DNA of 64,000 nucleotides from assembly GCA_000182565.2 (NCBI GenBank), contig KQ257474.1, one strand, 5' to 3'. The position numbers were made by a program, and so were the translations under genes. A model generated the notes under the pieces. The model made no database searches, was not told the DNA's origin, and saw only the letters and a program-made list of their open reading frames with translations. This stretch comes from Spizellomyces punctatus DAOM BR117. Taxonomy: Eukaryota. Below are positions 1 through 30,631 of this stretch, piece by piece (the first letter of the stretch is position 1; every line of letters begins with the position of its first letter).

Positions 1-25
1 CCTAGCCAACGACGTTCTGGGACAT

Positions 26-2641: not shown

Positions 2642-4984
2642 GATTTCAGAAAACATTGCGCAGGATGTGAAACCTGCCAATGCTCAAAAAGGGTACCGCA
2701 ACTGATTCCGGGGTTGTTGAAACCCATACCACCAGCTCCGGGACGCTGGACAGTCATCACGACTGACTTCGTAACCAAGCTCCCACTTACTTCCAGAGGG
2801 TACGATGCCTTTTGGTTAATAGCATGTAAATGCTCAAAGAGGATCCACGTATGGCCCCTCAAGAGCACTGCGACAGCTATTCAGGTCGCGGAACTCTTTA
2901 TAGAGCGCTACGTCCCATTGCACGGCATCCCGGAGACCATTATCTCGGACCGCGACTCCAAATTTACGAGTCGATTTTGGCAGGAGGTCTGCAAAAACCT
3001 AAAGATTAATCAAGAGCTCACCACAGCCTACCACCCTCAAGGTGATGGACAATCAGAAAGAGACAACGCAACGGTCTTGCAGGTCCTTACCACAATGGTC
3101 AACACCCGATTAGATGACTGGGACACCTTTCTTCCGGTTGCGGAATTCATTATCAACGATACGGTACACGAGGCGACAAAAATGACGCGATTCAGAATGG
3201 ACCTAGGCTATGAGCCCCACAATCCACTGGCGGACATCGTCGAAAGGCCGTCAGAAACCAGAAATGCAGATGCGGAGGAGCTCTGTAAACACCTCGGCGA
3301 CCTAAACATCCTTATCCGAGATCTGATGATCGAAGCCCAGGATTCGCAGAAAAGATATTACGATTTATCGCGACGACATTTGGAGTTCCGGAGAGGAGAT
3401 AAGGTGCTTCTGAGCACGAAAAACCTAGCAGGGTATGAGTCCAAGATCACTCCGAAATGGCTGGGACCAGTCACGGTGACCGACTGTAACCCTCTCCGCG
3501 ACAACTACGAGTTAAAACTGCCAGACAAGATGAGACGACTTCATCCATGGTTTCACATATCGAAATTACGTCCGTACCAGAAGCCTGTCGACGCCGAAAC
3601 TGAGGAAAAGGTCGCGGAAGCACAAGCGGAGGATTCCGACGCTTCAGATGGCGAGTTTGAAGTGGAAGCGATAGTAGACCATCGAACCAGGCGCGGAAAA
3701 CGTCAATTTCGAATACGTTGGTCCGGATACCCACCCCATGAGGATACCTGGGAACCAGAGGAAGCCCTAACAGAGGCTTCCGAAGCCTTAGAAGAGTACT
3801 GGAGATCCAGAGCTCCCACTAGCGCGCTAGTAGAGGACTCTTTGGTAGTCAGCCTTGCAGGCGACGCCCCGGAAGATACGGCTTATGCTTCCGACCACCA
3901 ATGCTTCGCGGTTTATCCGGACGATAGCTCACGTGATAATCACGCCCTCTCACCAGAAAGAAAACCAGTTTCGCGTGGCTTACCTCACCAGTCGAGAACG
4001 CCACACCAAGCCTCCCGATCACGCTTACGCGCGTCCGAGCTGTCAAAATCAGCCGGCGACGACCTTAAAAGGACGCCCCTGCACGCTCCCCCTCTTTTTT
4101 CTTCTTCAACCGCCCACGACCTACTTCCCTTACACACTCACTCTGCTTCGCAAACCCCTTCTATCGACACCGAAACTAAAACTTCCATTTCTAACACAAT
4201 GAACACCGATCTCAGAGGACAAGCAGGAGTGAGCGTACCCTCCACGTACATGTCCGGCTACCCTTGGGAGGAAGACTCGGGCGACTTCGAGGCCGAGGGC
4301 GTGCTGGATCGCCTTGGGGTTGCGATCGCTACCTGGGTTCACTCCTGGGTTCATCAGCTTCGGACCAACCCCAACGCGCCGCTGCAGACTCCAGGGCATG
4401 AGTTTTGGCTGGGAGTCGACGCTCCGAAACCTTACGCGGTGGGCCAGCCCCTCACAAACCACATCGCGGACCCCTACAGCAAGGCCACCGATGGTGGTGA
4501 AGCAGCGGTCGGAATAGTTGCCGACGCGAAAAAACCCGGAAAAAGAGGGCGCCCAGCTCCGTGCGCCGCTTGGCTCGACCGCGGGGTTCCCCAACACGAG
4601 GCGGGAAGCCGAAAAACGGCTCCGTTCACCGATTGGCCGAACGACGACGCCCACGAGTTTGCGTCCGCCGTCATTGAAGCAGCTAGGACGGTGCTCCTAA
4701 GGACGGCGAACGCAGCGGAAGCCTCTGCAAGGCTCACCAGACCCCGACATCACGAGCACGCGGAGTACCATTTCCGCGCGACAAACCTGAAAAGGGCCGC
4801 GGAGACCTTTACGGCCCTCTACGTAACCAGAACTGGCCCCGACGTGACCCCGGGTACCATCGTTCGTACCGCAACAGATCAAATCTGGTTTTGTTGCAAC
4901 GTCGGTGGCCGTGCCAGTATCATCTGGGTCGTGAACCAAGATGCAGATGAAGCGGACCCCACAGATCCGGTACCGACCTGGTAA
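2642..4984 (+). CDS. A1 integrase core, GPY/F region, chromodomain, linker and C-terminal ORF X (same frame as upstream pol)
   Basis: TTDFV, SDRDSKF, HPQGDGQSER, KWLGP, FEVEAIVDHR...RIRWSGY...DTWEPEE. Confidence 0.88.
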   Translation, partial: DFRKHCAGCETCQCSKRVPQLIPGLLKPIPPAPGRWTVITTDFVTKLPLTSRGYDAFWLIACKCSKRIHVWPLKSTATAIQVAELFIERYVPLHGIPETIISDRDSKFTSRFWQEVCKNLKINQELTTAYHPQGDGQSERDNATVLQVLTTMVNTRLDDWDTFLPVAEFIINDTVHEATKMTRFRMDLGYEPHNPLADIVERPSETRNADAEELCKHLGDLNILIRDLMIEAQDSQKRYYDLSRRHLEFRRGDKVLLSTKNLAGYESKITPKWLGPVTVTDCNPLRDNYELKLPDKMRRLHPWFHISKLRPYQKPVDAETEEKVAEAQAEDSDASDGEFEVEAIVDHRTRRGKRQFRIRWSGYPPHEDTWEPEEALTEASEALEEYWRSRAPTSALVEDSLVVSLAGDAPEDTAYASDHQCFAVYPDDSSRDNHALSPERKPVSRGLPHQSRTPHQASRSRLRASELSKSAGDDLKRTPLHAPPLFSSSTAHDLLPLHTHSASQTPSIDTETKTSISNTMNTDLRGQAGVSVPSTYMSGYPWEEDSGDFEAEGVLDRLGVAIATWVHSWVHQLRTNPNAPLQTPGHEFWLGVDAPKPYAVGQPLTNHIADPYSKATDGGEAAVGIVADAKKPGKRGRPAPCAAWLDRGVPQHEAGSRKTAPFTDWPNDDAHEFASAVIEAARTVLLRTANAAEASARLTRPRHHEHAEYHFRATNLKRAAETFTALYVTRTGPDVTPGTIVRTATDQIWFCCNVGGRASIIWVVNQDADEADPTDPVPTW
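4199..4984 (+). CDS. ORF X allele 1, 261 aa, unknown function (own ATG, in frame with pol)
   Basis: Gapless ~60% aa identity (hand count) to 25158-25943, same length, no stops in either. Confidence 0.75.
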   Translation: MNTDLRGQAGVSVPSTYMSGYPWEEDSGDFEAEGVLDRLGVAIATWVHSWVHQLRTNPNAPLQTPGHEFWLGVDAPKPYAVGQPLTNHIADPYSKATDGGEAAVGIVADAKKPGKRGRPAPCAAWLDRGVPQHEAGSRKTAPFTDWPNDDAHEFASAVIEAARTVLLRTANAAEASARLTRPRHHEHAEYHFRATNLKRAAETFTALYVTRTGPDVTPGTIVRTATDQIWFCCNVGGRASIIWVVNQDADEADPTDPVPTW

Positions 4985-5041
4985 TTGACGTCCCAACACC
5001 CCCGCTCGGAGCGCCGGTGCGTTGGCTCTTCAAAGGGGGGA

Positions 5042-5641
5042 TGTAATGACGAGGACGTCTTCGAGAGATCGCGAGTAAGCCCAAATCGGACGCGGGAAGC
5101 ACGAATCGCGTGACCAACTCCACCGATTGGGTTACCGCGACCGAAAAAACCGGTTCGGAGAATGGCAATTGGCGCATTAGATTTCAGCGTGCCTCGTACA
5201 ACCTGTGGAGGCCCGAGCCAGTGCGGAAAAGGAAGAGATCGGTACCGCCACCAATAAATCAGTTGCGGTGCAGCGACACCCATTAGTTTAGTTTAGTTTA
5301 ACAGTTTATCCAAGAATCTTGTATAAAAAGGATGTATTCAATAAAATAAGTCGGGGGCAGAAGCCGTAGCGACAAAAAATCCCCATAACTCGCTTCTCAA
5401 CTCCAATCTTAGGTTAACAGGAACCTAACAGAGCGCTTCAACGGCCTGATCACCCGTACCGAAGCCTCTAAATCCTGCTCGGTTCACAACTAACCGACTC
5501 TCCTTGCCTCTCGCCCTCAAGTCGCTACCGACGCCCAAAGAAAGGATTTGGAGACTACGATTCCTAGTACGGACACCCACACAACCTGCTAGGAGACCCA
5601 AGTTGTCTTTACCGTAGTCTACCAACAAAAAATCCGTTACA
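5042..5641 (+). repeat. Family A 3' LTR with type-1 U3 (600 bp)
   Basis: TGT...TTACA; from TATAAAAA (~5322) onward it matches the other family A LTRs, upstream part unrelated. Confidence 0.9.
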
Positions 5642-5673: not shown

Positions 5674-5725
5674 CTGATACAGTGCATCAGATAAGCCATT
5701 CGGCTTATCTGATGCACTGTATCAG
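5674..5725. repeat. Perfect 24-bp inverted repeat with 4-nt loop
   Basis: ctgatacagtgcatcagataagcc-attc-ggcttatctgatgcactgtatcag. Confidence 0.95.
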
Positions 5726-8700
5726 TCGGAAATGAAAGTTTGTGTTTTGGTGTTGATAGAAAAGGTTTGTGAAGCAGAGTAGGTCTGTAAGGGAGATAGG
5801 TTGTAGGTAGTTGAAGAAGAAAAAAGAGGGGGAGCATGCAGGGGCATCCTTTTAAGGTCGTCGCTGGCTGATTTTGACAGCTCGGATGCATGTAAGCGTG
5901 ATCAGGAGGCTTGGTGTGGCGTTCTTGACTGGTGAGGTAAGCTGCGCAAAACTGGTTTTCTTTCTGGTGAGAGGGTGTGATTATCACGTGAGCTATTGTC
6001 CGGATAAACTGCGAAGCATTGGTGGTCGGAAGCATAAGCTGTATCTTCCAGGGTGTTGCCTTCAAGGCTGACTACCAAAGAGTCCTCTACTAGTGTGCTA
6101 GTGGGAGCTCTGGATCTCCAGTACTCTTCTAAGGCTTCGGAAGCCTCTGTTAGGTCTTCCTCTGATTCCCATGTATCCTCATGGGGTGGATATCCGGCCC
6201 AACATATTTGAAATTGACACTTTCTGCGCCTGGTTCAATGGTCTACTATTGCTTCCACTTTGAACTCGCCTTCTGAAGTGTTGGAATCCTCCGCTTGTGC
6301 TTCCGCGACCTTTTCCTCAGTTTCGGCGTCGACAGGCTTCTGGTACGGACGTAATTTCGATATGTGAAACCATGGATGAAGTCATCTCATCTTGTCTGGC
6401 AGTTTTAACTCGTAGTTGTCATGGAGAAGGTTTCAGTCGATCACTGTGACTGGTCCCAGCCATTTTGGAGCGCTCTTGGACTCATACCCTGCTAGGTTTT
6501 TCATGCTCAGAAGCACCTTATCTCCTCTCTGGAACTCCAAATATTGTCACAATAAATTGTAATATCTTTTCTGCGAATCCTGGGCTTCGATCATCAGATC
6601 TCGGATAAGGATGTTTAGGTCGCCGAGGTGTTTACAGAGCTCCTCCGCATCTGCATTTCTGGTTTCTGACGGCCTTTCGACGATGTCCGCCAGTGGATTG
6701 TGGGGCTCATAGCCTAGGTCCATTCTGAATCGCGTCATTTTTGTCGCCTCGTGTACCGTATCATTGATAATGAATTCCGCAACCGGAAGAAAGGTGTCCC
6801 AGTCGTCTAATTGGGTGTTGACCATTGTGGTAAGGACCTGCAAGACTGTTGCATTGTCTCTTTCTGATTGTCCATCACCTTGAGGGTGGTAGGCTGTGGT
6901 GAGCTCTTGATTAATCTTTAGGTTTTTGCAGACCTCCTGCCAAAATTGACTTGTAAACTTGGGGTTGTGGTCCAAGATAACAGTCTCCGGAATGCTGTGC
7001 AATGGGATGTAGCATTCTATGAAGAGTTCCATGACCTGAATAGCTGTCATGGTGCTCTTGAGGGGCCATACATGGATCCTCTTTGAGCATTTACATGCTA
7101 TTAGCCAAAAGGCATTGTACCCTCTGGAAGTAAGTGGGAGCTTGGTTATGAAGTCAGTTGTGATGACTGTCCAGCATCCTGGAGCTGGTGGTATGGGTTT
7201 CAGCAACCCCAGAATCAGTTGCAGTACCCTTTTTGAGCATTGACAGATTTCACATCCTGCGCAGTGTTTTCTGAAATCTTGTGCCATCTTTGGCCACCAG
7301 ACTTGTGCTGTGGCTCTGGTGTAGGTTCTTTCGAATCCAAAGTGTCCTCCCCCCTCATGAAAAAGCTTGCACACCTCGGGGGTGCAAGTGGGGGGCATGT
7401 AGAGGTGCCAAAGGTCTTCAGAGACTGAAAAATGGTGCCACAGCAGGTTATCTGCACGTTGCCAGTCCTGAAGAAAGTGTGTGTCAGCTGTAGTGTAGGT
7501 GTTGGGGCTGGTCTCCCATAGGAGTGTGCAGGCCTGTTGGGTTATGGGGTGGAGCTGGCCAGTGAGGCCAGTGTGGATGGTGGCAATGAGTGCAGGCTGT
7601 AATGCCAGACAAAAGACAGCATCTGCCAGTGTTGAGGAAGGTGTGAGAGCTGCTGGTGTGGTGCGTGGCCGTCATCTTCCATGTTCTGACACCCATATTT
7701 GGGTCGCAGTGGAGCAGAGAAGGGTTTCCGCTCCTAGTAGCTGTGAAAGTGTATCAGTGACAATGTGAAAATGTCCTGGTTTGTGAATGATTGTCATCCA
7801 TTCAGACCAGTAACTAAGATTGAGGGCCCAGCGGAGAAGCTTACAGTTCTCACCTTTGTATTTAGCAAGCCATAAAAGAGCTCGGTGATTGGTAATGACT
7901 GTGAAAGGCAGGCCTTCAAGGTATGGGCAGAGTTTTCCAAGGCCCCAAATGAGGCATCTGGCCTTGAGTTTGACCAGTGGGGCCTTCTTTTCCAGGGTGG
8001 TGGTGCCTTGGGAGTGGTAGCACAGCAGGTGTTTGGAGGCATCCAGCTGTAACTGTTTGAGTGTGACATTAAACATGGTGTAGGAAGTGTCACTGTGAAG
8101 GGTGTAGGGGAACCCTTTTCTGGGTGCTGCGAGCACGGGAGCTGTTGTCAGTGCCTGTTTGGTGGCTGCAAAGGCAGAGTTTCGGGAATCAGTCCATGAA
8201 ACTTCACGCTTTGTGATAAATCTGTGCAGACCTTGGTTGGGGCGCTTGCAAGCAAGGTGTCTGACACAAAAGGGGTCAATGGGCACATCTGCCAGTGATG
8301 ATTGGCATAGATTGACTGCTGGTAGGTCTGAGGAGCTAGATTTTGGATGATGTGAAACCTCAAATCGGGCTCTGGTGGCTGTGATTGTAGGGGCCACTGC
8401 CGTGTTGAGAGCATGGATGGTGAATTGAGCTTTTCAGCACCTTTCTTTGGGTCAGCATGACCCTTTTTAAGGTCTTGGTATTCATGAATGCCCTCTTGGA
8501 TAGCATCTTGCAGGGGTCAGATGAGTTCTGTGTAGTGAGGGATGAATTGGGCATAGAACCCTAGGAGACCCATGAAGGACCATAGGTCACCTATGAATTT
8601 GGGTTGTGGCCAATCAACTATGGTTGTGACCTTGTCTGGATTGGTAGTGAGACCCTGGGAGGAGGCAATGAAACTGAGAGCTGTGAGCTGGTGAAAGAGC

Positions 8701-9590
8701 CATTGACACTTGTTGAGTCTTAGGGTGAGTTTGGCTCTGGAAAAGCGGTCGAGCCAGTCTGCGATGGCATCTAGGGCTTCTGCGGCTGTCTCTGCTCATG
8801 TATGGATATCATTGATGAAGTTGTTGATATTTTGCCATTTGGAGGGACCCAAGGTGTTGTCCATTACCTGACAGAAGTGCAAAGGGGCAGTCTTGGGTCT
8901 GAAGGGCATAAAGAGTGGTTCATAGATGCCGTCATGGAGTCTGATCATGAGCCATTTGCGTACTGACACATTGGTGATGGTGATTTGGTAAAATCCTTTG
9001 TTTGTGTCACCTCCTGATATGTATTGGAATGGGACTGTGACGATCCAGTTCAGGATGTCGAGCATGATGGGAAAGGGATATGGGTCCCAGGCCATGCAGT
9101 CATTGGCTTGGTGATAGTTGAAGGCTACCTGCGGGGGTTTGTCTGCATAGTGAATGATAACAGGATCACTGGTGAAGGTTACTTTGGTGGTTTGTTTCCA
9201 CCTCTGAAGCCCCATCATGGTGTCTCGCTCCGTCTCGAGGGCTGTCCGCTCCAACGGAGAGTACGACCGTGGCCTCGAAAGGGGTGGCGGAGCCGAGATA
9301 AATCGAGGCGCATAAGGAATCTTGGTGTAGTTCCCTATGAGATGACCCTCATAGCTGAAGGCTTGATGGAAGTGTTGTAGAATGTTGATTAGGGCCCAGA
9401 CCACAGGTTTGGGTTGCTTGAGATCAATGTGGAAACGTTCTGCATCTTTTAATTGGGCTTTGAAGGCCCCTGGAGCCTTCTCTGTAGAGTTGAGGTTCCA
9501 TTTGTTCTGAAGTGTCTGCCATTCTTCTTTGGAAATGTTCTCTTTGGGGTCTGCAACCAAATTATGGGTTGTGGTGGACAGTTTGAGGCC

Positions 9591-10201
9591 TGTAACAGGC
9601 TAGCAGGGACAAGAAGACAACAGAAAACTAGGGAAGACTTGGTTACTACTTGTTATTTCCCTTTGAGGGGCCTCAGAGAGGTCCTCTTTTTATAGACAAA
9701 TGGGGCTGACAAATGCTATATCCTAACTACCCAATCAGATCTCACCCACATCATCCTAAACTATTTGTCAGCCTATTGCACCATTTGCAACCAATCAGAA
9801 CTCATACATGTCATCCTAAACTATTTGTCAGCCTATTGCACCATTTGCAACCAATCAGATCTGACAGATGTCATCCTAAACTATTTGTCAGCCTATTGCA
9901 CCATTTGCAACCAATCAGATCTTATACATGTCATCCTAAACTATTTGTCAGCCTATTGCACCATTTATAGCCAATCACAAGTGAGACAAGTCATCCTAAA
10001 TACACTGTGCCACTTGATTGAAAGGGGCAGATGCTAGTGTGTCAGGATACTCATCTAATTTAGCCAGAAATGGCTAAATCTGCTTATTTATCTAATTCTG
10101 GTCAAATGAATGTTGACACCATCAGCAAAGTCATGTGACCGCTAGTTTGGAACCACATCTAACCAGTATAACTATAGCACTGACAGAAGAATTCTGTCAC
10201 A
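9591..10201 (-). mobile_element. Family B solo LTR inserted in A2
   Basis: Matches 15377-15806; 5-bp TSD AGGCC (9586-9590 / 10202-10206). Confidence 0.95.
9731..10000. repeat. 60-bp tandem repeat (~4.5 units) with CCAATCA boxes inside the B LTR
   Basis: Lines 9781, 9841, 9901 repeat with period 60; other B LTRs are ~180 bp shorter. Confidence 0.95.
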
Positions 10202-13187
10202 AGGCCTAACAGGGGTGTTGAGCTAGCTGCGGTGGCCTCAAGAGGGTTTTCGATGAGAAAAGTTTGGGCTGCCATGCGCGTCTGTCCCGTGATTAACATG
10301 GTTAATCTAGACTTCTGAGCTTTGGCTTTGGTCAGCCGTGGCATTGACACATCCTTCATGAATTCGCCCTGCTTGGTCTTGTATGGCATGCTGTGCATGT
10401 GATCGGTGTCCAGCTCATCTGTTATGGAGCAAGGGATAAGGATGTCCGGATTCTTGAGCATCACCACGAAACTGGGTAACAGGGGTTCCTGAACCAAGGT
10501 TTGGAGTTTCAAATGTCCCAGAACGTCATTGGCTAGGATGATGAGAGATTTCCTGTATGCAATGACTTGGAAATAGGCGCAGAAAGTCAGGTATTCTCCT
10601 CCGCAGCCTCTGAGGGAAGTTTCAAGGCATACTGTCTTGGTAGATGAGATATGTCCACCAATGCCATTGAAAGCCATCATTTCTGCATCCTGCAAATCGG
10701 TTTTGGAGAACAGAAGGCCCTGGTACGTGTCGGAAACCAGAGACTCACAGGCTCCTGTGTCTAGTACCACAGGTGCCCAGAGCTGAGCGATGATGGCTAG
10801 CATCCAGCAAGGCTGTGTTTGGGTCTTGGTCTGGCTTTTGAGTACATTGCCTAAATCTACCAAGTAGAAGGCGTTGATGGAAGGCACTGTGACCTCGAAA
10901 TGGGGCGCAATGTCGTTACTTGTTGCTTCTGTAGCCTTGATTGCACTCTCAAAGTGCTCTCTAGATTTGTTGTTTTGTGGTTTTGTTGTTTTATTCTGGC
11001 GAGCAACTTGTTCGATAGCCAGCATGACTATACGCGTCCGTTCGCTCTCTTCGTGTCTTTGGAGACGTGGATGGTCTTTAACGTGCAGAAATTTGGGGTT
11101 TCCGTGATGATAATAATAGTCTGAGCGAACGATATTGCCTGTCAGGAGAAATGCCACCAGTTGCAGGTTGGCATAAGAATCAAAGATAACAGGATCTTCG
11201 GAGCTCCACATCAAGAATTTCTCACACTCGTTGAGCCTTATCCAGGCAAGGAGGATCAAACGAGGGGTACCGTCTTCTCGGACTTTTCACAGGATTCGAT
11301 CCTTGTCAGCTTCGGCTGCGGCAGCAATGTAGAGGTGGTGGGAACTCCACGCGACTGCGTAGGGGTCGTTCCCAAGGTGCCCGGTGCCTCGCTTCGGTTC
11401 TTTGGCGAAGAAGCTGAGCGCGCGGGGGTTGTTGCCCATCATCAGAGCCACTTGCGGGGTGCCCCAGATGATGGCTATGTTGTCCCAGACTTGGTCCCAG
11501 CCCTGCGTGGGCATGCGGGGGTCCTCTTCCTTGGTCACCGTGACCTTGGAAAGAGGTGCGGTCATCAAAATTGTTGATTCCGAGTGCTCGGGTGAATGAA
11601 AGAATCCGATGGTGTGGAATCCTTGATTAGCGGCGGCTGTCCTTTCCAGTTCCGAAGCCGAAAAAAGAGTCTCGGTGGTAGCGGACGTCGAGTCCAGCTC
11701 CACTATGTATGACTTCTTGGACTCCTGTTTGGGTTTCCAACCTGCGGGCATGGGTGCTCCATATGGTCCCTTCTTTCCATCTTCAGGATCTTTTCGGTTC
11801 GGGTTCTGCCAGCAGAAAACATTCCAATGCTTTTTCTGACAGAATTTGCAGGGTGCTGGTGGTTCTGTGTTGGGGTCCGGAACCATCTTCTGAGGGCCGT
11901 CGCGACCCTTTTCGGGGTTTCCGGTTTTATGTTGAGCCGTCTGCTTAGGGCCTTTGTCGATTGCGGTCTTTTGTGACTTCTTCTGAGCTTCAGCAGCACC
12001 GCTGTAGCAAGGGTCTCGTTTTCTGGTGTCATCAGAGCCGAAATAAAGGCACAGGAAGTCTTTTAATTTGGTCAGCTTCGTGACGTTACAGGATTTGACC
12101 ATGATTTGGATGTTGCTGGGCAATTGTTTGACTATTAGGTTGAAATGCTGGTCAGCAGGACATTCTATGTTTGCCCAGTCGCCATAAGCAAGGTGCTGGA
12201 GATGAGTTTTGTGGTTGATGAATGCAAGAAAGCTGTGAAATTCTTTGGGGTTTGCATGACAGCACACATATTCAGCTTTGTGCTTGGATTCGGTTAGGGG
12301 GTCTCGGAACTCTTGAAGCAGTTCTTCCTTCCACCTTTTCCAGGTCCATGAGCAAGTTTCCTGGGCTTCCAGAGTGTAAAACCAGGTGTTGGCAGGGGTT
12401 TTCTTGGCTATCATGGCTGGTAGGAGCTGTACCATCCTGGCATCTGATGTTGTGCTAATGTTTTGAAGAAGTTGGACTTTGTTAAGCCATTCTTCAATGT
12501 CTTGGTTTCTTTTGCCTGTAAACTTGGGTATGTCCTTTGCTTTCAAGGAATTGACCTTGGTGTTGCTGGCCCACGGGGCCACTGGCACTTGGATTGGAGG
12601 CACCGCACCTGAAAAACTTGGTTCGGTACGCTCCCTTGGTGTGTCCGCCGTTTCCCACGGGGTTGCGGACCGTTCTCTTGTAGCTCGTGCTATGAGAGGT
12701 TGTTCAGGCAGCGGGTGATGCGCTAGGGCTTCTAAGGCTCATGTGAGGTGCTCATCCACCGCTGTCTGACATTCAGAAAGCCTATGAAGCTGTTCCATAA
12801 GATTTTGAGTTGCCAACTGCATTGCAGCAGTTGAGCGGGCAATGTCTTCTTTTAATGCTGCCACTTCAGAGGCCATCATGGCCAAGTTAGGGGCTTCTGG
12901 TTTGATGGAAGTGGTCCCTGAATGCCTTGGGTGTGTTGCGGGAGAGACTTTGACGTCCTCTGCAGGACCCTGACTATGAGTCTGGATCACAGGTGAGTGG
13001 CCTCATGTTGGTGAGTGTTTGACCAGCATCATTCTCGGTTTCATGAAGTTCTGTCTCCGAAACAAGAGAAAAAGTTTCTGAGTAGCTACCTGAGTGGATC
13101 TCGGTTTGTGCAAGAGTTTTGGTATGACCAAATAAGGTTTTCAGCTGAATTTGAGAGGGGAAGGCAGTTTGTTGTGCTTCTCCACCA

Positions 13188-13760
13188 TGTAATGGATTTT
13201 TTGTAGGTAGACTACGGTAAAGACAACTTGGGTCTCCTAGCAGGTTATGTGGGTGTCCGTACTAGGAATCATAGTCTCTGAATCCTTTCTTTGGGTGTTG
13301 GTAGTGAATTGGGGGTGAGAGGCAAGAAGAGTTGGTTAGTTGTGAACCGAGCAGGATTTAGAGGCTTCAGTGCAGGTGATCAGGCTGTTGAAGTGCTCTG
13401 TTAGGTTCCTGGTAACCTAAGATTGGAGTTGAGAAGCTAGTTGTGGGGATTTTGTGTTGCTATGGCTTCTGCCCTGCTGACTTATTTTTTTGAATTTGTC
13501 TTTTTATACAAGAATATGCTATGGTAACATCTACACTAGTTTCCGTAGCCTTCATTAGGGTGGCGGCATCTGATCTTCCCATCTCGGACCATTGCCATGA
13601 TTGATCATGGCTGTGTAACATATCCTTCACGCTGCGCTGGTGTAGCCCAGAACCGAGCTTGATCTTAGGGGTTTTGAAGCTTAGGTTACAATTGCAGAAA
13701 CCTCAATCGTGGTCACCTGATGCCTTTGAGCAAACTGGTCTATCAGAGTCATTCGCTACA
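13188..13760 (-). repeat. Family A 5' LTR of A2 (type-2 U3)
   Basis: Reverse complement of 17749-18320, followed by PBS TGGTGGAGAA. Confidence 0.93.
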
Positions 13761-13982
13761 TTTTCCTGCTTCAAATCTCTTTTCTGATGGCCACACCATC
13801 TTCCTGACAGACCTATCCTCTTCCCAACCTCATATTTGCACCACCTACCACACCAGGATGCAATTTCACCTCTTCCCCAACAGCAAATTCACTCACCCAA
13901 TCAGCTCAGACATGTCAAACACAGACTTGGACACCAAACTCACAATGGAAAAGTTCAGTGGCATGAACTGCCACCTCTGGAA
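13761..13982 (+). mobile_element. Copia family C fragment: 5' leader and gag start (MSNTDLDTKLTMEKF)
   Basis: Reverse complement of ~38480-38698; joined to an opposite-orientation C LTR at microhomology tggaa. Confidence 0.85.
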
Positions 13983-16977: not shown

Positions 16978-17748
16978 ATGACCAGCCAGGAAGAGATTCT
17001 CTTCAACACCATTGCTGAGCTTGACATAGACCAGGTCAGGCAGGAGCTTTATCAAGCAAAGCTCCAGCAGCTGAACTCCACCACACCAGCCACTGCTCAG
17101 TACCAACCCAGAGTAGATAAATCCCTGGTAAAAGTCCTCCAAAGCAAGTTGAAGCCCTACAAAGGCAACAGGAATGTCCAAGAGATTAGGACATACCTCC
17201 TCAGACTTGAAGAGTACTTCCAGGCAGCTGCAGATCTATCACCAGAAGGCCAACTGTTAGTAGCCACCACCTACTTGGAACTCCATGCTGAAGTCTGGTG
17301 GCAAAGCCATGTCAAGAACCACCCAGTAGGATCCCCTCTCAGAATCCAGTCTTGGGACCAGTTCAAGAGAGCCCTTCAAGAGAACTTCCTCCCAGCAAAT
17401 GCCACCAGAGCAGCAAGAGACCAGTTGGCCAGGCCCAAACAACAAGGCTCAGTAAAGGAGTACCTGAACCAGTTCAATACTTTATGCCTTCAGGTGGATG
17501 ACTTGTCAGAAGCTGAAAAGTTAGACAAGTTTATCAGAGGGCTTAAACCCAGGGTTCAGGAACAACTGGAGCTTAATCCCACCAGTACCATCAACTTAGC
17601 CACAGCTGCAGCAACAGCTGATAGGATTGACCAGATCCAGCTCAGCTACCAGAGAAGAAGCCAGGCCACCAGCTACTACTCCCCCAAGACTGAGAACTCT
17701 GGAGTAGTCCCTATGGAGATAGATAGTATATCCACCAACTCTGGGAAG
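16978..17748 (+). pseudogene. gag: Family B gag, N-terminal part (interrupted by A3)
   Basis: Retrotrans_gag-like: AEVWW, SWDQFKRAL, QQGSVKEY, FIRGL, VPMEID. Confidence 0.88.
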
Positions 17749-18320
17749 TGTAGCGAACGACTCTGATAAACCGGTTCACTCAAAGGCATCAGGTGACCAC
17801 AATTGAGGTTTCCGCAATTGTAACCTAAGCTTCGAAACCCCTAAGATCAAGCTTGGTTCTGGGCTACACCAGCGCAGCGTGAAGGATATGTTACGCAGCC
17901 ATGATCGATCATGGCGATGGTCCGAGATGGGAAGATCAGACGCCGCCACCCTAATGAAGGCTATGGAAACTAGTGTAGATGTTACCGTAGCATATTCTTG
18001 TATAAAAAGAGGAATTCAATAAAATAAGTCGGCGGCCAGAAGCCGTAGTGACACTAAATCCCCACAACTAGCTTCTCAACTCCAATCTTAGGTTAACAGG
18101 AACCTAACAGAGCGCTTCAACGGCCTGATCACCCGCACTGAAGCCTCTAAATCCTGCTCGGTTCACAACTAACCGACTCTCCTTGCCTCTCGCCCTCAAG
18201 TTGCTACCGACACCCAAAGAAAGGATTTGGAGACTACGATTCCTAGTACGGACACCCACATAACCTGCTAGGAGACCCAAGTTGTCTTTACCATAGTCTA
18301 CCAACAAAAAATCTGTTACA
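17749..18320 (+). repeat. A3 5' LTR (type-2 U3)
   Basis: Near-identical to 26001-26572. Confidence 0.95.
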
Positions 18321-18330
18321 TGGTGGAGAA
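18321..18330 (+). promoter_or_regulatory. Family A primer-binding site, probably tRNA-Ala
   Basis: TGGTGGAGAA is complementary to a ...TTCTCCACCA tRNA 3' end typical of tRNA-Ala. Confidence 0.6.
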
Positions 18331-20007
18331 GCATGACGAACTGCCTTCCCCTCTCAAATTCAGCTGAAAACCTTATTCGGTCATACCGAAACTCTTGCGC
18401 AAACCGAGATCCGCTCAGGTAGCTACTCGGAAACCTTTTCTCTCATTTCGGAAACAGACTTCACGAAACCGAGAATGATGCCGGTCGAACGCTCTCCAAC
18501 GCGAGGCCGCTCACCTGTGATCCAGACTCATAGTCAGGGTCCTGCGGAGGACGTCGAAGTCCCTCCTGCAACACGCCCAAGGCGTTGAGGGACCACTTCC
18601 GTCAAACCGGAAGCCCCTAACTTGGCCACGATGGCCTCTGAAGTGGCAGCGTTAAAAGAAGACATTGCCCGCTCGACTGCTGCAATGCAGTTGGCAACTC
18701 AAAATCTTACGGAACAGCTTCATAGGCTTTCCGAACGTCAGACAGCGGCGGATGAGCACCTCGCACGAGCCTTAGAAGCCCTAGCGCATCGCCCGCTGCC
18801 TGAACAACCTCTCATAGCATGAGCTACAAGAGAACGGTCCGCAACCCCGTGGGAAACGTCGGACACACCAAGGGAGCATACCGAACCAAGTTTTTCAGGT
18901 CCGGTGCCTCCAATCCAAGTGCCAGCGGCCCCGTGGGCCAGCGACACCAAGGTTGATTCCTTGAAAGCAAAGGACGTACCCGAGTTTACGGGCAAAAGAA
19001 ACCAAGACGTTGAAGAATGGCTCAACAAAGTCCAACTTCTTCAAAACGTTAGCGCAATGTTGGATGCCAGGATGGTACAGCTCCTACCAGCCATGATAGC
19101 CGAGAAAACCCCTGCTGACGCTTGGTTTTACACTCTGGAAGCCCAGGAAACTCGCTCGTGGACCTGGAAAAGGTGGAAAGAAGAACTGCTTCGAGAGTTC
19201 CAAGATCCCCTAACTGAGTCCAAGCGCAAAACCGAATATGTGCGCTGCCACGCGAACCCCAAAGAATTTTGCAGCTTTCTTGCGTTCATTGACCACAAAA
19301 CTCATCTCCGGCGCCTCGCATACGGCGACTGGGCAAACATAGAATGTCCCGCTGACCAGCATTTTGACCTAATAGTCAAACAATTGCCCAGCGACATCCA
19401 AATCATGGTCAAATCCTGTAACGTCACGAACCTGACCAAATTAAAAGACTTCCTGCGCCTTTATTTCGGCTCTGATGACACCAGAAAACGAGACCCTTGC
19501 TACAGCGGTGCTGCTGAAGCTCAGAAGAAGTCACAAAAGACCGGAACCGACAAAGGCCCTAAGCAGACGGCTCTGCATAAAACCGGAAACCCCGAAAAGG
19601 GTCGCGATGGTCCTCAGAAGATGGTTCCGGACCCCAACAAGGAACCACCGGCACCCTGCAAATTCTGTCAGAAAAAGCATTGGAATGTTTTCTGCTGGCA
19701 GAACCCGAACCGAAAAGATCCTGAAGATGGAAAGAAGGGACCATATGGAGCACCCATGCCCGCAGGTTGGAAACCCAAACAGGAGTCCAAGAAGTCATAC
19801 ATAGTGGAGCTGGACTCGACGTCCGCTACCACCGAGACTCTTTTTTCGGCTTCGGAACTGGAAAGGACAGCCGCCGCTAATCAAGGATTCCACACCATCG
19901 GATTCTTTCATTCACCCGAGCACTCGGAATCAACAATTTTGATGACCGCACCTCTTTCCAAGGTCACGGTGACCAAGGAAGAGGACCCCCGCATGCCCAC
20001 GCAGGGC

Positions 20008-20300
20008 TGGGACCAAGTCTGGGACAACATAGCCATCATCTGGGGCACCCCGCAAGTGGCTCTGATGATGGGCAACAACCCCCGCGCGCTCAGCTTCTTC
20101 GCCAAAGAACCGAAGCGAGGCACCGGGCACCTTGGGAACGACCCCTATGCAGTCGCGTGGAGTTCCCACCACCTCTACATTGCTGCCGCAGCCGAAGCTG
20201 ACAAGGATTGAATCCTGTGAAAAGTCCGAGAAGACGGTACCCCTCGTTTGATCCTCCTTGCCTGGATAAGGCTCAACGAGTGTGAGAAATTCTTGATGTG
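20008..20300 (+). other. Degenerate DIRS/Dam-like N6-adenine methyltransferase-like domain in family A polyprotein
   Basis: WGTPQVALMM...LGNDPYAVAWSSHHLYI...RIL(R)KVREDGTPRLILLAW parallels the DIRS MT pattern; by-eye only. Confidence 0.6.
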
Positions 20301-23300
20301 GAGCTCCGAAGATCCTGTTATCTTTGATTCTTACGCCAACCTGCAACTGGTGGCATTTCTCCTGACAGGCAATATCGTTCGCTCAGACTATTATTATCGT
20401 CACGGAAACCCCAAATTTCTGCACGTTAAAGACCATCCACGTCTCCAAAGACACAAAGAGAGCGAACGGACGCGTATAGTCATGCTGGCTATCGAACAAG
20501 TTGCTCGCCAGAATAAAACAACAAAACCACAAAACGACAAATCTAGAGAGCACTTTGAGAGTGCGATCAAGGCTACGGAAGCAACAAGTAACGACATCGC
20601 GCCCCATTTTGAGGTCGCAGTGCCTTCCATCAACGCCTTCTACTTGGTAGATTTAGGCAATGTACTCAAAAGCCAGACCAAGACCCAAACGCAGCCTTGC
20701 TGGATGCTAGCCGTCATCGCTCAGCTCTGGGCACCTGTGGTACTAGACACAGGAGCCTGCGAGTCTCTGGTTTCCGACACATACCAGGGCCTTCTGTTCT
20801 CCGAAACCGATTTGCAGGATGCGGAAACGATGGCTTTCAAAGGCATTGGTGGATGTATCTCATCTACCAAGACAGTATGCCTCGAAACTTCCCTCAGAGG
20901 CCGCGGAGGAGAATACCTGACTTTCTGCGCCTATTTCCGAGTCATTGCATATGGGAAACCTCTCATCATCCTAGCCAACGATGTTCTGGGACATTTGAAA
21001 CTCCAAACCTTGGTTCAGGAACCCCCGTTACCCAGTTTCGCGGTGATGCTCAAGAATCCGGACATCCTTATCCCTTGCTCCATAACAGATGAGCTGGACA
21101 CCAATCACATGCGCAGCACGCCATACAAGACCAAGCAGGGTGAATTCATGAAGGATGTGTCAATGCCACGGCTGACCAAAGCCAAAGCTCAGAAGTCTAG
21201 ATTAACCATGTTAATCACGGGACAGACACGCGTGGCAGCCCAAACTTTTCTCATCGAAAACCCTCTTGAGGCCACCGCTGCTAGCTCAACGGTCCCGTTA
21301 GGCCTCAAACTGTCCACCGCGACCCATAATTCGGTTGCGGACCCTGAAGAAAACATTTCCAAAGAAGAATGGCAGACACTTTGGAACAAATGGAACCTCG
21401 ACTCTACGGAGAGGGCTCCAGGGGCCTTCGAAGCCCAATTAAAAGACACGGAATGTTTCCACGTTGATCTCAAGCGACCCAAACCCGTGGTCTGGGCCCT
21501 AATCAACATTCTACGACACTTCCATCAAGCCTTCAGCTATGAGGGTCATCTCATAGGGAACTACACCAAGATTCCTTATGCGCCTCGATTTATCTTGGCT
21601 CCGCCACCCCTTTCGAGGCCACGGTCGTACTCTCCGTTGGAGCGGACAGCCCTCGAGACAGAGCGAGACACCATGATGGGGCTTCAGAGGTGGAAACGTA
21701 CCACCGAAGTAACCTTTGCCAGTGATCCTGTTATCATTCACTATGCAGACAAACCCCCGCGCGTAGCCTTCGACTATCGCCGAGCCAACGACTGCATGGC
21801 CTGGGATCCATATCCCTTTCCCATCATGCTCGACATCCTGAACTGGATCGTCGCAGTCCCATTCCGATACATATCGGGAGGTGACGCAAACAAAGGATTC
21901 TACCAAATCGCCATCACCGATGCATCGGTACGCAAATGGCTCGCGCTCAGACTCCATGATGGCATCTACAAACCACTCTTTATGCCCTTCGGACCCAAGA
22001 CTGCCCCCTCGCACTTCTGTCGGGTGATGGACGACACCTTGGGTCCCTCCAAATGGCGAAATATCAACAACTTCATCGACGATATCCACACACGAGCGGA
22101 GACAGCCGTGGAAGCCCTAGACGCCATCGCGGACTGGCTCGACTGCTTTTCCAGAGCCAAACTCACCCTAAGACTCGACAAGTGTCAATGGCTCTTTCAC
22201 CAGCTCACAGCCCTCGGTGTCGTTGCCTCCTCTCAGGGTCTCGCTACTGATCCAGACAAGGTCGCAACCATAGTCGATTGGCCACGACCCAAATTCATAG
22301 GTGACCTATGGTCATTCGTGGGTCTCCTAGGGTTCTACGCCCAATTCATTTCTCGCTACGGGGAACTTGTCCAACCCCTGCAAGACGCTATCCAAGAGGG
22401 CGTTCGCGAATACTGAGACCTTAAAAAGGGTCGCGCTGACCCGAAGAAAGGTGCTGAAAAGCTCAATTCACCATCCATGCTCGACACGGCGGTGGCCCCT
22501 ACAATCACAGCCACCGGAGCCCGATTTGAGGTTTCACAACATCCGAAATCTAGCTCCTCAGACCTACCGGGGTCAATCTATGCCAATCATCACTGGCGGA
22601 CTTACCCATTGACCCCTTTTGTGTCGGACGCCTTGCTCGCAAGCGCCCTGACCAAGGTCTGCGCAGATTTATCGCGAAGCATGAAGTTTCATGGACCGAT
22701 TCCCGAAACTCTGCCTTCGCAGCCGCCAAGCAGGCTCTGACAACAGCTCCAGTGCTCGCGGCACCCAGAAAAGGGTTCCCCTACACCCTTCACAGTGACG
22801 CTTCCTACACAGCATTTAATGTCACGCTCGAACAGTTACAGCCGGATGCTTCTAAACACCTGCTGTGCTACCATTCCCGAGGCACCACCACCTCGGAAAA
22901 GAAGGCCCCCCCCGTCGAACTCGAGGCCGGATGCCTGATTTGGGGCCTCGGAAAACTCCGCCCATACCTCGAAGGCCTGCCTTTCACGGTCATTACTGAT
23001 CACCGAGCTCTTTTGTGGCTCACTAAATACAAAGGCAAGAACCGTAAGCTTCTCCGCTGGGCCCTCGATCTTAGTTACTGGTCCGAATGGATGACAATCG
23101 TTCACAAACCAGGACGTTTTCACATTGTCGCTGATACACTTTCACGGCTACTAGGAGCGGAAACCCTACTCTGCTCCACCGCGACCCAAATATGGGTGTC
23201 GAAACGCGGAAGATGACGGCTGCGCACCACACCAGCTGCTCTCGCACCTTCCTCGACACTGGCAGATGCCGTCTTTCGTCTGGCCTTACAGCCTGCACTC

Positions 23301-25157
23301 ATTGCCGCCATCCGCGCTGGCCTCACCGGCCAGCTCCACCCCATAGCCCAACAGGCCCGCATGCTCCTATGGGAGACCAGCCCCGACACCTACACTACAG
23401 CTGACGCGCGCTTTCATCAGGACTGGCAACGTGCAGATAACCTGCTGTGGCACCGTTTTTCAGTCTCCGAAGACCTTTGGTGCCTCTACGTGCCCCCTGC
23501 TTGCACCCCCGAGGTGCGCAAGCTTTTTCATGAGGGGGGAGGACACTTCGGATTCAAAAGAACCTACGCTAGAGCTGCAGCACAAGTCTGGTGGCCGAAA
23601 ATGGCATAAGATTTCAGAAAACATTGCGCAGGATGTGAAACCTGCCAATGCTCAAAAAGGGTACCGCAACTGATTCCGGGGTTGTTGAAACCCATACCAC
23701 CAGCTCCGGGACGCTGGACAGTCATCACGACTGACTTCGTAACCAAGCTCCCACTTACTTCCAGAGGGTACGATGCCTTTTGGCTAATAGCTTGTAAATG
23801 CTCAAAGAGGATCCACGTATGGCCCCTCAAGAGCACTGCGACAGCTATTCAGGTCGCAGAACTATTTATAGAACGCTATGTCCCATTGCACAGCATCCCG
23901 GAAACTATCATCTCAGACCATGACCCCAAATTTACGAGTTGATTTTGGCAGGAGGTCTGCAAAAACCTAAAGATTAATCAAGAGCTCACCACAGCCTACC
24001 ACCCTCAAGGTGATGGACAATCAGAGAGAGACAACGCAATGGTCTTGCAGGTCCTTACCACAATGGTCAACACCCGATTAGATGACTGGGACACCTTTCT
24101 TCCAGTTGCAGAATTCATTATCAACGATACGGTACACGAGGCGACAAAAATGACGCAGTTCAAGATGGACCTAGGCTATGAGCCCCACAATCCACTGGCG
24201 GACATCGTTGAAAGGCCGTCAGAAACCAGAAATGCAGACACGGAAGAGCTCTGTAAACATCTCAGAGACCTAAACATCCTTATCCGGGATCTGATGATCG
24301 AGGCCCAGGACTCGCAGAAAAGATATTATGATTTATTGCGACGACATCTGGAGTTCCGGAGAGGAGATAAGGTGCTTCTGAGCACAAAAAACCTAGCAGG
24401 GTATGAGTCCAAGATCGCTCCGAAATGGCTGGGACCAGTCACAGTGACTGACTGCAACCCTCTCCGCGACAACTATGAGCTAAAACTGCCAGACAAGATG
24501 AGATGACTTCACCCATGGTTTCACATATCGAAATTACATCTGTACCAGAAGCCTGTTGATGCCGAAACTGAGGAAAGGATTGCGGAAGCACAAATGGAGG
24601 ATTCCGATGCTTCAAAAGGTGAGTTCGAAGTGGAAGCGATAGTAGACCATCGAACCAGGCACGGAAAGTGTCAATTTTGAATACGTTGGGCCGGATACCC
24701 ACCCCATGAGGATACCTGGGAACCAGAGGAAGCCCTAACAGAGGCTTCTGAAGCCTTAGAAGAGTACTGGAGATCCAGAGCTCCCACTAGCACACTAGTA
24801 GAGGACTCCTTGGTAGTCAGCTTTGCAGGCAATGCCCCGGCTTATGCTTCTGACCACCAATGCTTCACGATTTATCCGGACAATAGCTCACGTGATAATC
24901 ACGCCCTCTCACCAGAAAGAAAACCAGTTTCGCGTGGCTTACCTCACCAGTTGAGAATGCCACACCAAGCCTCCCGATCACGCTTACGCACATCCGAGCT
25001 GTCAAAATCAGCCGGCGATGACCTTAAAAGGACGCCCCTGCACGCTCCCCCTCTTTTTTCTTCTTCAACTACCTACGACCTATCTCCCTTACAGACCTAC
25101 TCTGCTTCGCAAACCTTGTCTATCGACACCGAGACAAAAGCTTTCGTTTCCAACACC

Positions 25158-25943
25158 ATGACCACCGATATCCGAGGACAACAAGGAGTCAGCATCCTCT
25201 CTACCCTTGAGGAAGGCTATCCCTGGTCAGAAGTAAGCGACGCCTTCGCTGCCGAGAACTCTATCAAGCGGCTCGGAGCAGCTATGGCCACCTGGGTCGA
25301 AGTTTGGATTCGTGAGCTGTTCGAAGACCCAAACAAACCCCTTGAACACTATCGTGGTGAAGATTGGGTGGTTGACGGGTCTTCGAAGCCATACGCCACG
25401 AGCCAGCCCCTCACGATGCATATCGCGGAGCCCTACAGTAGGGCTTCCGACGGCAGTCAAGCAGCTGTCGGTATCATCGCCGACGCAAAAAAGATCGGGA
25501 AGAGATTACGGGACGTACCCTGCGCCGCCTGGCTTGACGCTGGGGTCCCTCAACATGCGGCCGGAAACCCCAAAACGGCCTGCTTCACCCTCTGGCCCGA
25601 TCGCGAGGCCCACGATTTCGTGGACATAGCCATCGAAGCCACAAGAGCAGTGTTGTTAAAGCTAGCCAACACAGCTGAAACCACAGAAGAGCAGCTCCGT
25701 CCCAAACATCGGGAGCACGCCTATTACCACTTTCGAGCAGTTAACTTGAAAAGGGCCGCAGAGACGTTCACAGCCCTCTACGTAACCCGAGCCAATGGTT
25801 CCAGGACACCTGGAACCCCGGCTCCGGAAGCCACTGACCAAATTTGGTTCTGCGCGAACGTCATGGGGCACGCTACCATAATCTGGACAATCAACGAAGA
25901 CAGCCTTGAAGCTGACGACGACTATCCAGTTGCATCATGGTAG
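25158..25943 (+). CDS. ORF X allele 2, 261 aa, unknown function
   Basis: Intact although upstream pol is disrupted; homologous to 4199-4984. Confidence 0.75.
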   Translation: MTTDIRGQQGVSILSTLEEGYPWSEVSDAFAAENSIKRLGAAMATWVEVWIRELFEDPNKPLEHYRGEDWVVDGSSKPYATSQPLTMHIAEPYSRASDGSQAAVGIIADAKKIGKRLRDVPCAAWLDAGVPQHAAGNPKTACFTLWPDREAHDFVDIAIEATRAVLLKLANTAETTEEQLRPKHREHAYYHFRAVNLKRAAETFTALYVTRANGSRTPGTPAPEATDQIWFCANVMGHATIIWTINEDSLEADDDYPVASW

Positions 25944-26000
25944 AAGCGAGGTTCGGGCACTCACAGACAAGTCGCCGAACCTTCTTTTTCGAAGGGGGGA

Positions 26001-26572
26001 TGTAGCGAACGACTCTGATAAACTGGTTCACTCAAAGGCATCAGGTGACCATGATTGAGGTTTCCACAATTGTAACCTAAGCTTCGAAACCCCTAAGATC
26101 AAGCTCGGTTCTGGGCTACACCAGCGCAGCATGAAGGATACGTTACGCAGCCATGATCGATCATGGCGATGGTCTGAGATGGGAAGATCGGACGCCGCCA
26201 CCCTAATGAAGGCTACGGAAACTAGTGTAGATGTTACCATAGCATATTCTTGTATAAAAAGAGGAATTCAATAAAATAAGTCGGCGGCCAGAAGCCGTAG
26301 CGACACTAAATCCCCACAACTAGCTTCTCAACTCCAATCTTAGGTTAACAGGAACCTAACAGAGCGCTTCAACGGCCTGATCACCCGCACTGAAGCCTCT
26401 AAATCCTGCTCGGTTCACAACTAACCGACTCTCCTTGCCTCTCGCCCTCAAGTCGCTACCGACGCCCAAAGAAAGGATTTGGAGACTACGATTCCTAGTA
26501 CGGACACCCACACAACCTGCTAGGAGACCCAAGTTGTCTTTACCGTAGTCTACCAACAAAAAATCCGTTACA
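26001..26572 (+). repeat. A3 3' LTR
   Basis: TGTAGC...GTTACA after PPT. Confidence 0.95.
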
Positions 26573-26576
26573 GAAG

Positions 26577-26717
26577 CCTCTCTCCAAACTCACTGAGGCT
26601 GAGAAGACTGAGCTCAGAAAGAAGGGAGCCTGTTTCAGGTGCAGAAAGCCAGGCCATATTGCCCCCCTATGCCCCTTGAAGACCAAGCAGCAGGGAAATG
26701 GCAAGCAGACTCAGTAG
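26577..26717 (+). pseudogene. gag: Family B gag C-terminus with CCHC zinc knuckle
   Basis: [17 protein letters not shown] at 26715-26717, resumes after A3 TSD. Confidence 0.85.
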
Positions 26718-29700: not shown

Positions 29701-30631
29701 CTTCTTAAAGCACATCTTCAAGCGCCATGGCCTCCCAGAAGTGATTGTATCAGACAGAGACACCAAGTTCACCAGTTCATTCTGGTCCAACTTGATGCAA
29801 CTCTTAGGCTGCAACACCCTCCTAGCCACTGCAAGGCACCAGCAGACCAATGGACAGGCAGAGAGAACCATCAAGACTTTGAAGATCTACCTCAGAGCTT
29901 TCCTGCAGTACAACATGAAGAATTGGGAAGATCTTCTCCCCTTTGCTGAGTTTGCCTACAACAGCAGCATCTCAGAAACCACACGCTTTACCCCATTCTA
30001 CTTGGAGAATGGCCAGCATCCCAGGACCCCAGCAACACCACCAGGAGAAAGCAATGATCCTGAAGCAACAGACTTCCACCAGTATATTCAGCAACTGCTT
30101 CAAGTAGCCAAGGATAACATGATACTGGCCCAAGAAAGACAAGTTCAGCATGCCAACAAGTCTCTCAGCAAGGCCCCAAGCTACCCCCTAGGCTCCAAAG
30201 TTTGGCTATCTAGAGAAGGTATCACCCCAGAAGAAGAAGCCCAGAGGCCAGCCCAGAAACTTCTTCACCCCTGGCTTGGACCTTACAGAATCAAGGCCAA
30301 GGATGAATTTCAGAATTACACCCTGGAGCTCCCCAGCACCATGAAGATTCATCCAGTGTTCCATGTGAGACTCCTCAAGCCTTACTTGGACCCCACAGAG
30401 GACTTCCCTACCAGACCAGTACCCCCTGAGCCTGAGTCCATTATCCAGCAAGGAGAAGAGATTTGGGAAGTTGAGAAGATTCTTGACCACAAGACCAGAA
30501 GGAAGAAGAATCTCTACCTCATCAAGTGGAAAGGCTATCCCTCCTGTCAGAACACCTGAGAACCAGAAGAAAACCTCCTACCCCATGGCAGAGAAATCTT
30601 GAAGGAGTTCCTAGCTCAGAAGGGAACTTAA
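26693..30631 (+). CDS. pol: Family B pol (PR-RT-RH-IN-chromodomain), -1 frameshift entry; one TGG>TGA at 30557 in the chromodomain
   Basis: GGGAAAT slippery site, [37 protein letters not shown]...KWKGY. Confidence 0.92.
26870..27097 (+). repeat. 18-bp tandem repeat encoding (PEPQRT)n upstream of B protease
   Basis: Repeated ccagagaaccccagaacc-like units. Confidence 0.9.

Follow-up and report, generated by a model that had tools for sequence, protein, structure and literature searches.

A domain of no recognised family encoded downstream of the chromodomain in a Ty3/Gypsy chromovirus of the chytrid Spizellomyces punctatus

LTR retrotransposons rarely fix new modules, and the chromodomain, env and dUTPase usually change where or how an element spreads. 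What, then, is the reading frame, here named ORF X, that LTR elements of Spizellomyces punctatus DAOM BR117 carry between their chromodomain and their 3' LTR? The window analysed here is a stretch of 64,000 nucleotides of contig KQ257474.1, in which one ORF X lies on the plus strand at 25158..25943 and runs from ATG to TAG (261 codons and the stop). A second one, belonging to a diverged type, is found at 4199..4984 on the same strand (261 codons and TAA), in frame with pol from 2642. No third copy is present in the 64-kb window by tblastn, which gave two matches in all. An earlier interpretation made without database searches, called the sequence-only reading in the following, had pointed out that pol of one element family in the window, family A, continues past the chromodomain via a low-complexity linker into an extra globular domain, whereas pol of the adjoining family B stops at the chromodomain. 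This architecture is borne out: the extra domain is under selection, and family B pol ends within its chromodomain.

The copy at 25158 is part of a family-A LTR element, A3, which occupies 17749..26572 on the plus strand (8824 bp) with the target duplication GAAG at 17745-17748 and 26573-26576. Its two LTRs (17749-18320 and 26001-26572, 572 bp each) are 97.0% identical and have TG...CA termini, with the 4-bp GAAG on both flanks. Contigs from the runs X1 and X2 contain the empty site and join 17744 to 26573 exactly, with four letters in common, which confirms the ends of A3. The A3 insertion is polymorphic, X1 and X2 being runs of a kind not on record that carry the same species label. The second ORF X belongs to copy A1 (1..5641, plus strand), the 5' part of which is lost at the window start. 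In the nearly intact A1 the Pfam order is RVT_1, RT_RNaseH, Integrase_H2C2, rve, SH3_Tf2-1 and Chromo, the last one at residues 339-388 of the frame 2642-4981 (E 1.8e-16). The carrier of ORF X is a Ty3/Gypsy chromovirus, because reverse transcriptase, RNase H and integrase follow each other in this order with a chromodomain at the integrase C-terminus; LTRs with TG...CA ends and a short target-site duplication are likewise present. In A3 the chromodomain at the integrase C-terminus (24624..24773, plus strand, coordinates transferred from A1 with an offset of 20968) is broken by a TGA at 24678, and Pfam finds Chromo also at residues 1-31 of the A3 frame 24681-25943. An older copy, A2, with a CpG o/e of 0.38, lies on the minus strand at 5728..13766. 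It has no ORF X: its similarity stops at the edge of ORF X, at a TGA in its own pol frame. Between the end of the A1 3' LTR and the limit of A2 similarity there are 86 nt (5642-5728), which include a perfect palindrome of 52 nt at 5676-5727 with arms of ~24 nt and no other occurrence in the window; the TGA of the A2 pol frame is met exactly at this junction, and the palindrome, an unrelated sequence, follows it.

The first question is whether ORF X is a gene at all. The products of A1 and A3 are 59.8% identical over 261 of 261 residues in a gapless alignment (tblastn, 4199-4981, E 5e-101), and the conserved blocks PCAAWLDxGVPQH, NLKRAAETFTALYVTR and TDQIWFC are present in both window copies, as had been noticed before. 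By the NG86 method, dN is 0.34 and dS 1.63, giving a dN/dS of 0.21, with the C-terminal half more tightly constrained (0.16) than the N-terminal half (0.28). The constraint belongs to this frame, in which raw pN/pS is 0.415 compared with 1.11 and 1.12 in the two shifted frames; the non-coding frames contain 5-12 stops each, and identity at codon positions 1, 2 and 3 is 69, 73 and 48%, respectively. The suggestion of the sequence-only reading that the gapless divergence reflects purifying selection therefore holds, as the ratio between the window copies is not near 1, the value that raw pN/pS approaches (~1.1) in the other two frames. A3 ORF X is 93% identical to P0005 (SPPG_09137) and 88% to P0002, and A1 ORF X is almost identical to the C-terminus of P0012 (SPPG_07840). 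Because the two copies are gapless at 60% identity, show a frame-specific dN/dS of 0.21 and have distant relatives by profile, we are sure that ORF X is a real coding module under purifying selection.

This case rests on the deep comparison of A1 with A3, because intactness within A3 is uninformative. It had been remarked that ORF X is stop-free in A3 although A3 pol has several stops. The observation is correct: over 1399 codons aligned to A1, A3 pol has six in-frame stops and a 1-nt deletion, and ORF X has no stop. However, it is not significant. All five stops private to A3 (22414, 23214, 23940, 24504 and 24678) are CGA>TGA changes, the sixth being a TAA in common with A1; 26 CGA codons in A1 pol, five of them turned to stops in A3, compare with three in A3 ORF X, so that the chance of finding no stop there is ~(21/26)^3, that is ~0.53 by our own arithmetic. 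Moreover, A1 and A3 pol differ at 181 positions, 111 of them in CpG context, and pol CpG o/e declines from 1.03 in A1 over 0.81 in A3 to 0.38 in A2. The two LTRs of A3 differ at 17 positions, all of them transitions, 14 in CpG context and three outside. 5mC in Spizellomyces is confined to transposons, according to the available part of PMC12695648. In view of the CpG-context differences, the all-transition LTR changes and the 5mC on transposons, it is likely that family-A pol has decayed stepwise via deamination of methylated CpG. As only three of the 17 LTR differences are non-CpG, A3 is younger than its 3% LTR divergence would imply. Family B differs in composition: its gag-pol frame at 26612-30559 (1315 aa) is open and has a CpG o/e of 0.03 at 50% G+C, compared with 0.4-1.0 in family A, which reflects either a long adaptation to CpG loss or a difference between the families in age or methylation exposure. 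According to the ORF listing, the N-terminal part of this frame (26840-27110) consists of tandem short units rich in Pro, Glu, Gln, Arg and Thr (PEPQRT-like).

We searched 1.84 billion representative proteins with a profile built from Spizellomyces sequences only. Of eight matches, seven are true relatives, namely three Spizellomyces copies and four distant proteins, P0007-P0010, with 228-284 aa, 29-36% identity and E values from 3e-37 to 2e-20. The eighth, the acidic repeat protein P0011 (5332 aa), was matched in 17 short stretches and rejected as spurious. The relatives have in common the motifs YPW, G-I-x-A-D-A-x-K-x-x-K-R-x-R, A-A-W-[LI]-D-x-G-x-P-Q, T-A-[LV]-Y-[VI]-T and D-[QE]-[IL]-W-F, and judged by this profile X represents a small protein family, new to date, that extends to distant members. 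The closest named proteins come from S. punctatus DAOM BR117 and Spizellomyces sp. 'palustris', and each of the six named relatives is either a piece of such a copy or a Spizellomyces gene model with a fused Chromo. Fused forms longer than 497 aa did not appear at E<=0.01 among 8000 scored candidates of 498-2000 aa, which is a weak search. P0007-P0010 are free-standing proteins, three of which begin with a Met 27-33 residues ahead of YPW. This suggests that the domain is a separate ORF in the putative elements of the distant relatives, which are known here as protein sequences. The contigs of three of them measure 7.8-8.3 kb, the size of such an element, which can be taken as a hint. Scans for the contigs that encode the distant relatives confirmed none of 127 pattern matches in metagenomes with P0010, none of 566 in metagenomes with the family alignment and none of 105 in viral contigs with the family alignment.

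The distribution of relatives also bears on whether X might be a mere passenger, i.e. a captured fragment of a host or foreign gene that looks conserved by recency or robustness and has no role in the life cycle. Capture as such has precedents, as LTR elements are known to take up domains, such as dUTPase and the 'add. ORF' of fungal Gypsy elements in the available part of PMC2864245, and bdelloid LTR elements have captured ORFs according to the part of PMC5408684 at hand. Nevertheless, the two ORF X types stand at a dS of 1.63 and yet keep a gapless frame and a low dN/dS, which argues for long maintenance inside elements; all named relatives trace back to Spizellomyces copies or Chromo-fused models, and a host gene with X in another architecture was not found among the relatives. 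We therefore consider a passenger improbable.

With respect to the protein itself, Pfam assigns 0 families to X in 12 of 12 members, Chromo alone being detected, in two fused gene models, and a sequence-profile search of the PDB with X gave no matches at E<=10. An AlphaFold2 model of X computed from 12 aligned sequences is of medium confidence (pLDDT 77.6, pTM 0.81); an earlier AlphaFold model from five sequences (pLDDT 50.5) was not used. Foldseek, which the sequence-only reading had proposed for a predicted structure, returned no confident match for this model, with best E values of 0.18 (PDB) and 0.23 (BFVD), and the best VIA-align Z scores, 4.2 among 48,161 chains and 3.5 among 998, are far below the level that the tool deems meaningful. 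The earlier statement that the family is unrecognised thus stands against Pfam, the PDB profiles and the fold searches alike. Two candidate leads were dismissed: the sensor-domain chains 3lid, 3lr5 and 4jgo, with Z 3.1-3.9, are well under the meaningful level, and the ESM Atlas gave a recognition of 1741, under the known-family level, its best clusters being bacterial hypotheticals that provide no lead.

In the model, residues 1-17 are disordered, helices span 33-56, 149-178 and 185-203, and strands span 122-127, 205-210, 228-235 and 238-245. X is accordingly modelled as a new alpha/beta domain of ~240 residues with three long helices on a four-stranded sheet. The YPW motif and a basic K-x-x-KR-x-R loop precede the alpha/beta core. 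This basic patch, KKIGKRLR at residues 111-118 (25488..25511, plus strand), falls into a low-confidence loop (block 111-120, pLDDT 52), and every full-length relative retains the pattern K-x-x-K-R-x-R, with K112 and R118 invariant; it might serve as a nuclear localisation signal. X matches no Pfam family, and its modelled fold is unplaced. No new fold is claimed here: the model, taken as a whole domain only, has medium confidence, and a distant fold relation is possible.

These properties also speak to the idea that X is an envelope-like protein serving an extracellular or cell-to-cell stage. The sole point in its favour is where it lies, between pol and the 3' LTR, a placement also seen in errantiviruses and Athila (in the available portions of PMC2864245 and PMC13524379). 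However, over 19 residues the Kyte-Doolittle hydropathy of the two window copies peaks at 0.97 and 0.91, in agreement with the previous remark that no env-like TM segment is visible, and the higher values of P0009 and P0010 (1.74-1.75) occur only on the stretch aligned to the C-terminal beta-hairpin of the model. The X proteins are acidic (pI 5.1-5.7) and soluble-looking and have no N-terminal hydrophobic leader, so that by a simple hydropathy test the combination of a signal peptide with a TM anchor or fusion peptide is lacking. An envelope function is thus very improbable. Fusion-protein structures in PDB and BFVD gave no match for the medium-confidence model, a negative that we do not count against it.

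How, then, is X made? A1 has one uninterrupted frame (2642 to 4981), which passes through rve, SH3, Chromo, linker and X. The corresponding frame of A3 extends from stop to stop over 24681-25943 (420 aa, open 24681-25940) and begins inside the chromodomain, and the gene models P0005 (472 aa) and P0012 (484 aa) contain Chromo, linker and X in one chain. Hence, no stop separates pol and X in any of the four Spizellomyces copies that span the junction (A1, A3, P0005 and P0012), and in none of them is X a separate aORF or ORF3 bounded by an upstream stop; as these copies are ~95% alike in the linker, they count as roughly one observation. The chance of a stop-free linker of 131 codons is ~(61/64)^131 = 0.002 by our own arithmetic. 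The linker itself (24774..25157, plus strand; 131 codons in A1) is a Ser/Pro/Thr-rich low-complexity region, open in the pol frame and weakly constrained. Its dN/dS between A1 and A3 is 0.62, compared with A1 the A3 linker lacks 9 nt at 24837, and non-CpG differences divide into synonymous and non-synonymous ones as 7:11 in the linker compared with 17:5 in RT/RNase H and 21:9 in integrase/Chromo. Such weak constraint is what a tether would be expected to show.

With evenly divided confidence, we favour the reading that X is a C-terminal module of Pol on a flexible linker, with a nuclear accessory or tethering function, that may be released by protease and is swapped together with U3. X would then be made as the last part of Pol, after the integrase core, the SH3-like domain, the chromodomain and the flexible linker of ~130 residues, and would possibly be cut off afterwards by the protease of the element. 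In the nucleus it could work together with integrase, adding to the chromodomain a second module for tethering or for an accessory function; the tethering role is proposed from position and analogy.

The main competitor, which we consider rather unlikely, is that X is a separate accessory gene (ORF3) with its own ATG, translated by internal initiation or from a subgenomic RNA that is spliced or initiated internally, and acting in trans, e.g. as a regulator of the accompanying U3 or as a counter-silencing factor; the link to pol would then be incidental or a second route of expression. The sequence-only reading had leaned in this direction by giving ORF X its own ATG after a pyrimidine tract. 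This part of it is confirmed insofar as the start contexts, aacaccATG and aacacaATG in the two copies, and the tract upstream of them are present, and both cassette types keep the ATG with A at -3 where the conserved region begins. The free-standing distant relatives of 228-284 aa, three of them with a Met shortly ahead of YPW, together with this well-placed ATG allow that Spizellomyces X, too, may be translated independently. A separate gene is, however, not needed to explain the frame, which is unseparated from pol in four of four copies. Furthermore, a spliced mRNA with an acceptor near the pyrimidine tract is unlikely: A1 has no AG from the tract to the ATG, for which reason an acceptor at this place was rejected for A1, and the CAG of A3 corresponds to CAC in A1. 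The tract is better read as codons for PPLFSSS than as a splice acceptor.

A further point for an accessory gene comes from integrase, whose zinc-binding region contains the same TAA in A1 (2639-2641) and A3 (23607-23609), where A2 has CAA. As they stand, A1 and A3 can therefore make no integrase-X fusion without read-through, and X would be makeable there only independently of pol. The shared stop could be explained by gene conversion, by a polymorphism that was recombined in, by trans-mobilisation or by read-through. Downstream of it, non-CpG differences are mostly synonymous (21 to 9), as if integrase were still selected.

Transcription could in principle distinguish a Pol module from a separate gene, but a look-up listed no RNA data set that contains the element. 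In the RNA run X7, of which ~6% was read as 60-nt reads at very low overall depth, R-U5 of A3 reaches depths of 225 and 143 in the orientation that sense RNA would show in an ordinary stranded library. Most of pol has a depth of ~0.4-0.6, and 24896-25807 has only 0-0.06; reads of the A1 type are unmappable on the A3-type X at 90% likeness. The X7 data show only that A3-type cassettes are barely expressed in this sample. The raw reads gave no splice joints on the A3 element at this very low depth, which, together with the scarcity of reads over linker and X relative to pol, weighs weakly against an accessory gene with its own RNA. A contiguous X1/X2 contig over linker and X (24901-25451) was not counted as transcript evidence, the kind of these runs not being on record. 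Two further observations concern the LTRs. X7 reads over U3 (17904-18511 and 25808-26700) are opposite to the R-U5 reads, e.g. 31 versus 225 in 26112-26415, so that the LTR may be transcribed divergently, from around the TATA region. Moreover, sense reads run on past the 3' LTR into the flank at a depth of 143.

ORF X does not diverge alone. When A1 and A3 are compared in 60-nt steps, pol is mostly 92-98% identical up to ~4130/25090, followed by 72-80% across the ATG of ORF X, 50-77% through ORF X and 38-58% in the downstream spacer and in the LTR over its first ~250 nt. Blastn picks up similarity again at 5317/26248, identity is back to 85-100% from 5328/26259, and from ~5387/26318, just past the TATA box, through R-U5 it amounts to 97-100%. 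Overall, pol and R-U5 are 95-100% identical between copies, compared with only ~60% for ORF X together with the polypurine tract and the part of U3 that ends at the TATA box. In A3 the polypurine tract (gaagggggga, 25990..26000, plus strand) stands directly before the 3' LTR at 26001, and in A1 caaagggggga precedes the LTR at 5042. The cassette-specific U3 of A3 (26001..26247, plus strand, 38-58% identical to A1) lies upstream of the TATA box at ~26252 (tataaaaag motif), and in the 3' LTR of A1 (5042..5641, plus strand, 600 bp) U3 is A1-type to ~5316, with R-U5 in common with A3. dS contrasts accordingly, being 0.20 for integrase/chromodomain and 1.63 for ORF X. The gene models repeat this pattern, with both X types on the same chromodomain-linker backbone, P0012 being of the A1 type and P0005 of the A3 type, and the switch is at the same place; the similarity of A2 (minus strand, 13766-5728) also stops there, 7 nt ahead of the ATG position. 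ORF X, the polypurine tract and the pre-TATA part of U3 therefore make up a swapped 3' cassette of ~1.1 kb. In X1 and X2, word depth, a rough measure, is 7.5-17.5 over the A3-type X and lower than over pol (~38-85), as would be expected if only a minority of family A had the A3-type X.

Under the favoured reading of X as a Pol module, the cassette would be exchanged between element lineages, most simply by template switching in reverse transcription, when RNAs of two lineages are co-packaged. After first-strand transfer onto R of the other RNA, synthesis would copy the U3, polypurine tract and X of that RNA and then return to the first template close to where X begins. The joint inheritance of X and the pre-TATA part of U3 could also be counted in favour of an accessory gene that regulates U3, but simple adjacency explains it too. 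Going one step further, X and this U3 might be a co-adapted pair that is exchanged as one cassette, X being a nuclear regulator of its own promoter or a shield from 5mC silencing. We regard this as a speculative idea of low probability.

Additional modules in LTR elements have been described before. In the available part of PMC2864245, which covers Batrachochytrium as the sole chytrid, some fungal Gypsy elements contain an 'add. ORF' without assigned function as well as dUTPase domains at varied positions. As far as the parts of the sources at hand go (PMC2864245, PMC5408684, PMC9289625), X resembles these additional ORFs, which comprise the fungal 'add. ORF', captured dUTPase, plant aORFs and bdelloid ORF3, in being a lineage-restricted extra module between the pol core and the 3' LTR; being negative in Pfam, it matches none of the domains named there. 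It differs from them in that it is in frame with pol and exists as two deeply diverged alleles on one backbone. A search of the accessible literature gave no description of a post-chromodomain module in Spizellomyces LTR elements. The chromodomain of chromoviruses (Tcn1, MAGGY and Tf1 clades) offers another comparison, as it is likewise a module added at the C-terminal end of Pol/integrase. X is in the same polyprotein, on a flexible linker, but it is situated beyond Chromo, is ~5x larger and has no similarity to Chromo or any Pfam family; a role in targeting would be assigned to it by analogy. In complex retroviruses, 3' accessory or regulatory genes adjoin U3, e.g. tas and bel of foamy viruses. 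Like these, X is non-structural, located at the 3' end next to U3, has no TM segment, carries a basic NLS-like patch and is inherited together with the promoter-proximal U3. It differs from tas and bel in its in-frame fusion to pol; the searches brought up no resemblance in sequence or fold, and the reads gave no sign of a subgenomic RNA or an internal promoter.

The finding means that a domain without recognisable family or fold is kept under purifying selection in a chytrid chromovirus, and that two deeply diverged alleles of this domain move, with their U3, between otherwise near-identical backbones. If X and U3 were indeed a co-adapted pair, the chytrid chromovirus would be a 'complex' LTR retrotransposon with a regulatory gene, of which we know of no description in fungi. 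S. punctatus is reportedly transformable (Medina and colleagues, 2020). Together with the confinement of 5mC to transposons, this would make a role of X in integration targeting or in coping with silencing directly testable in this organism.
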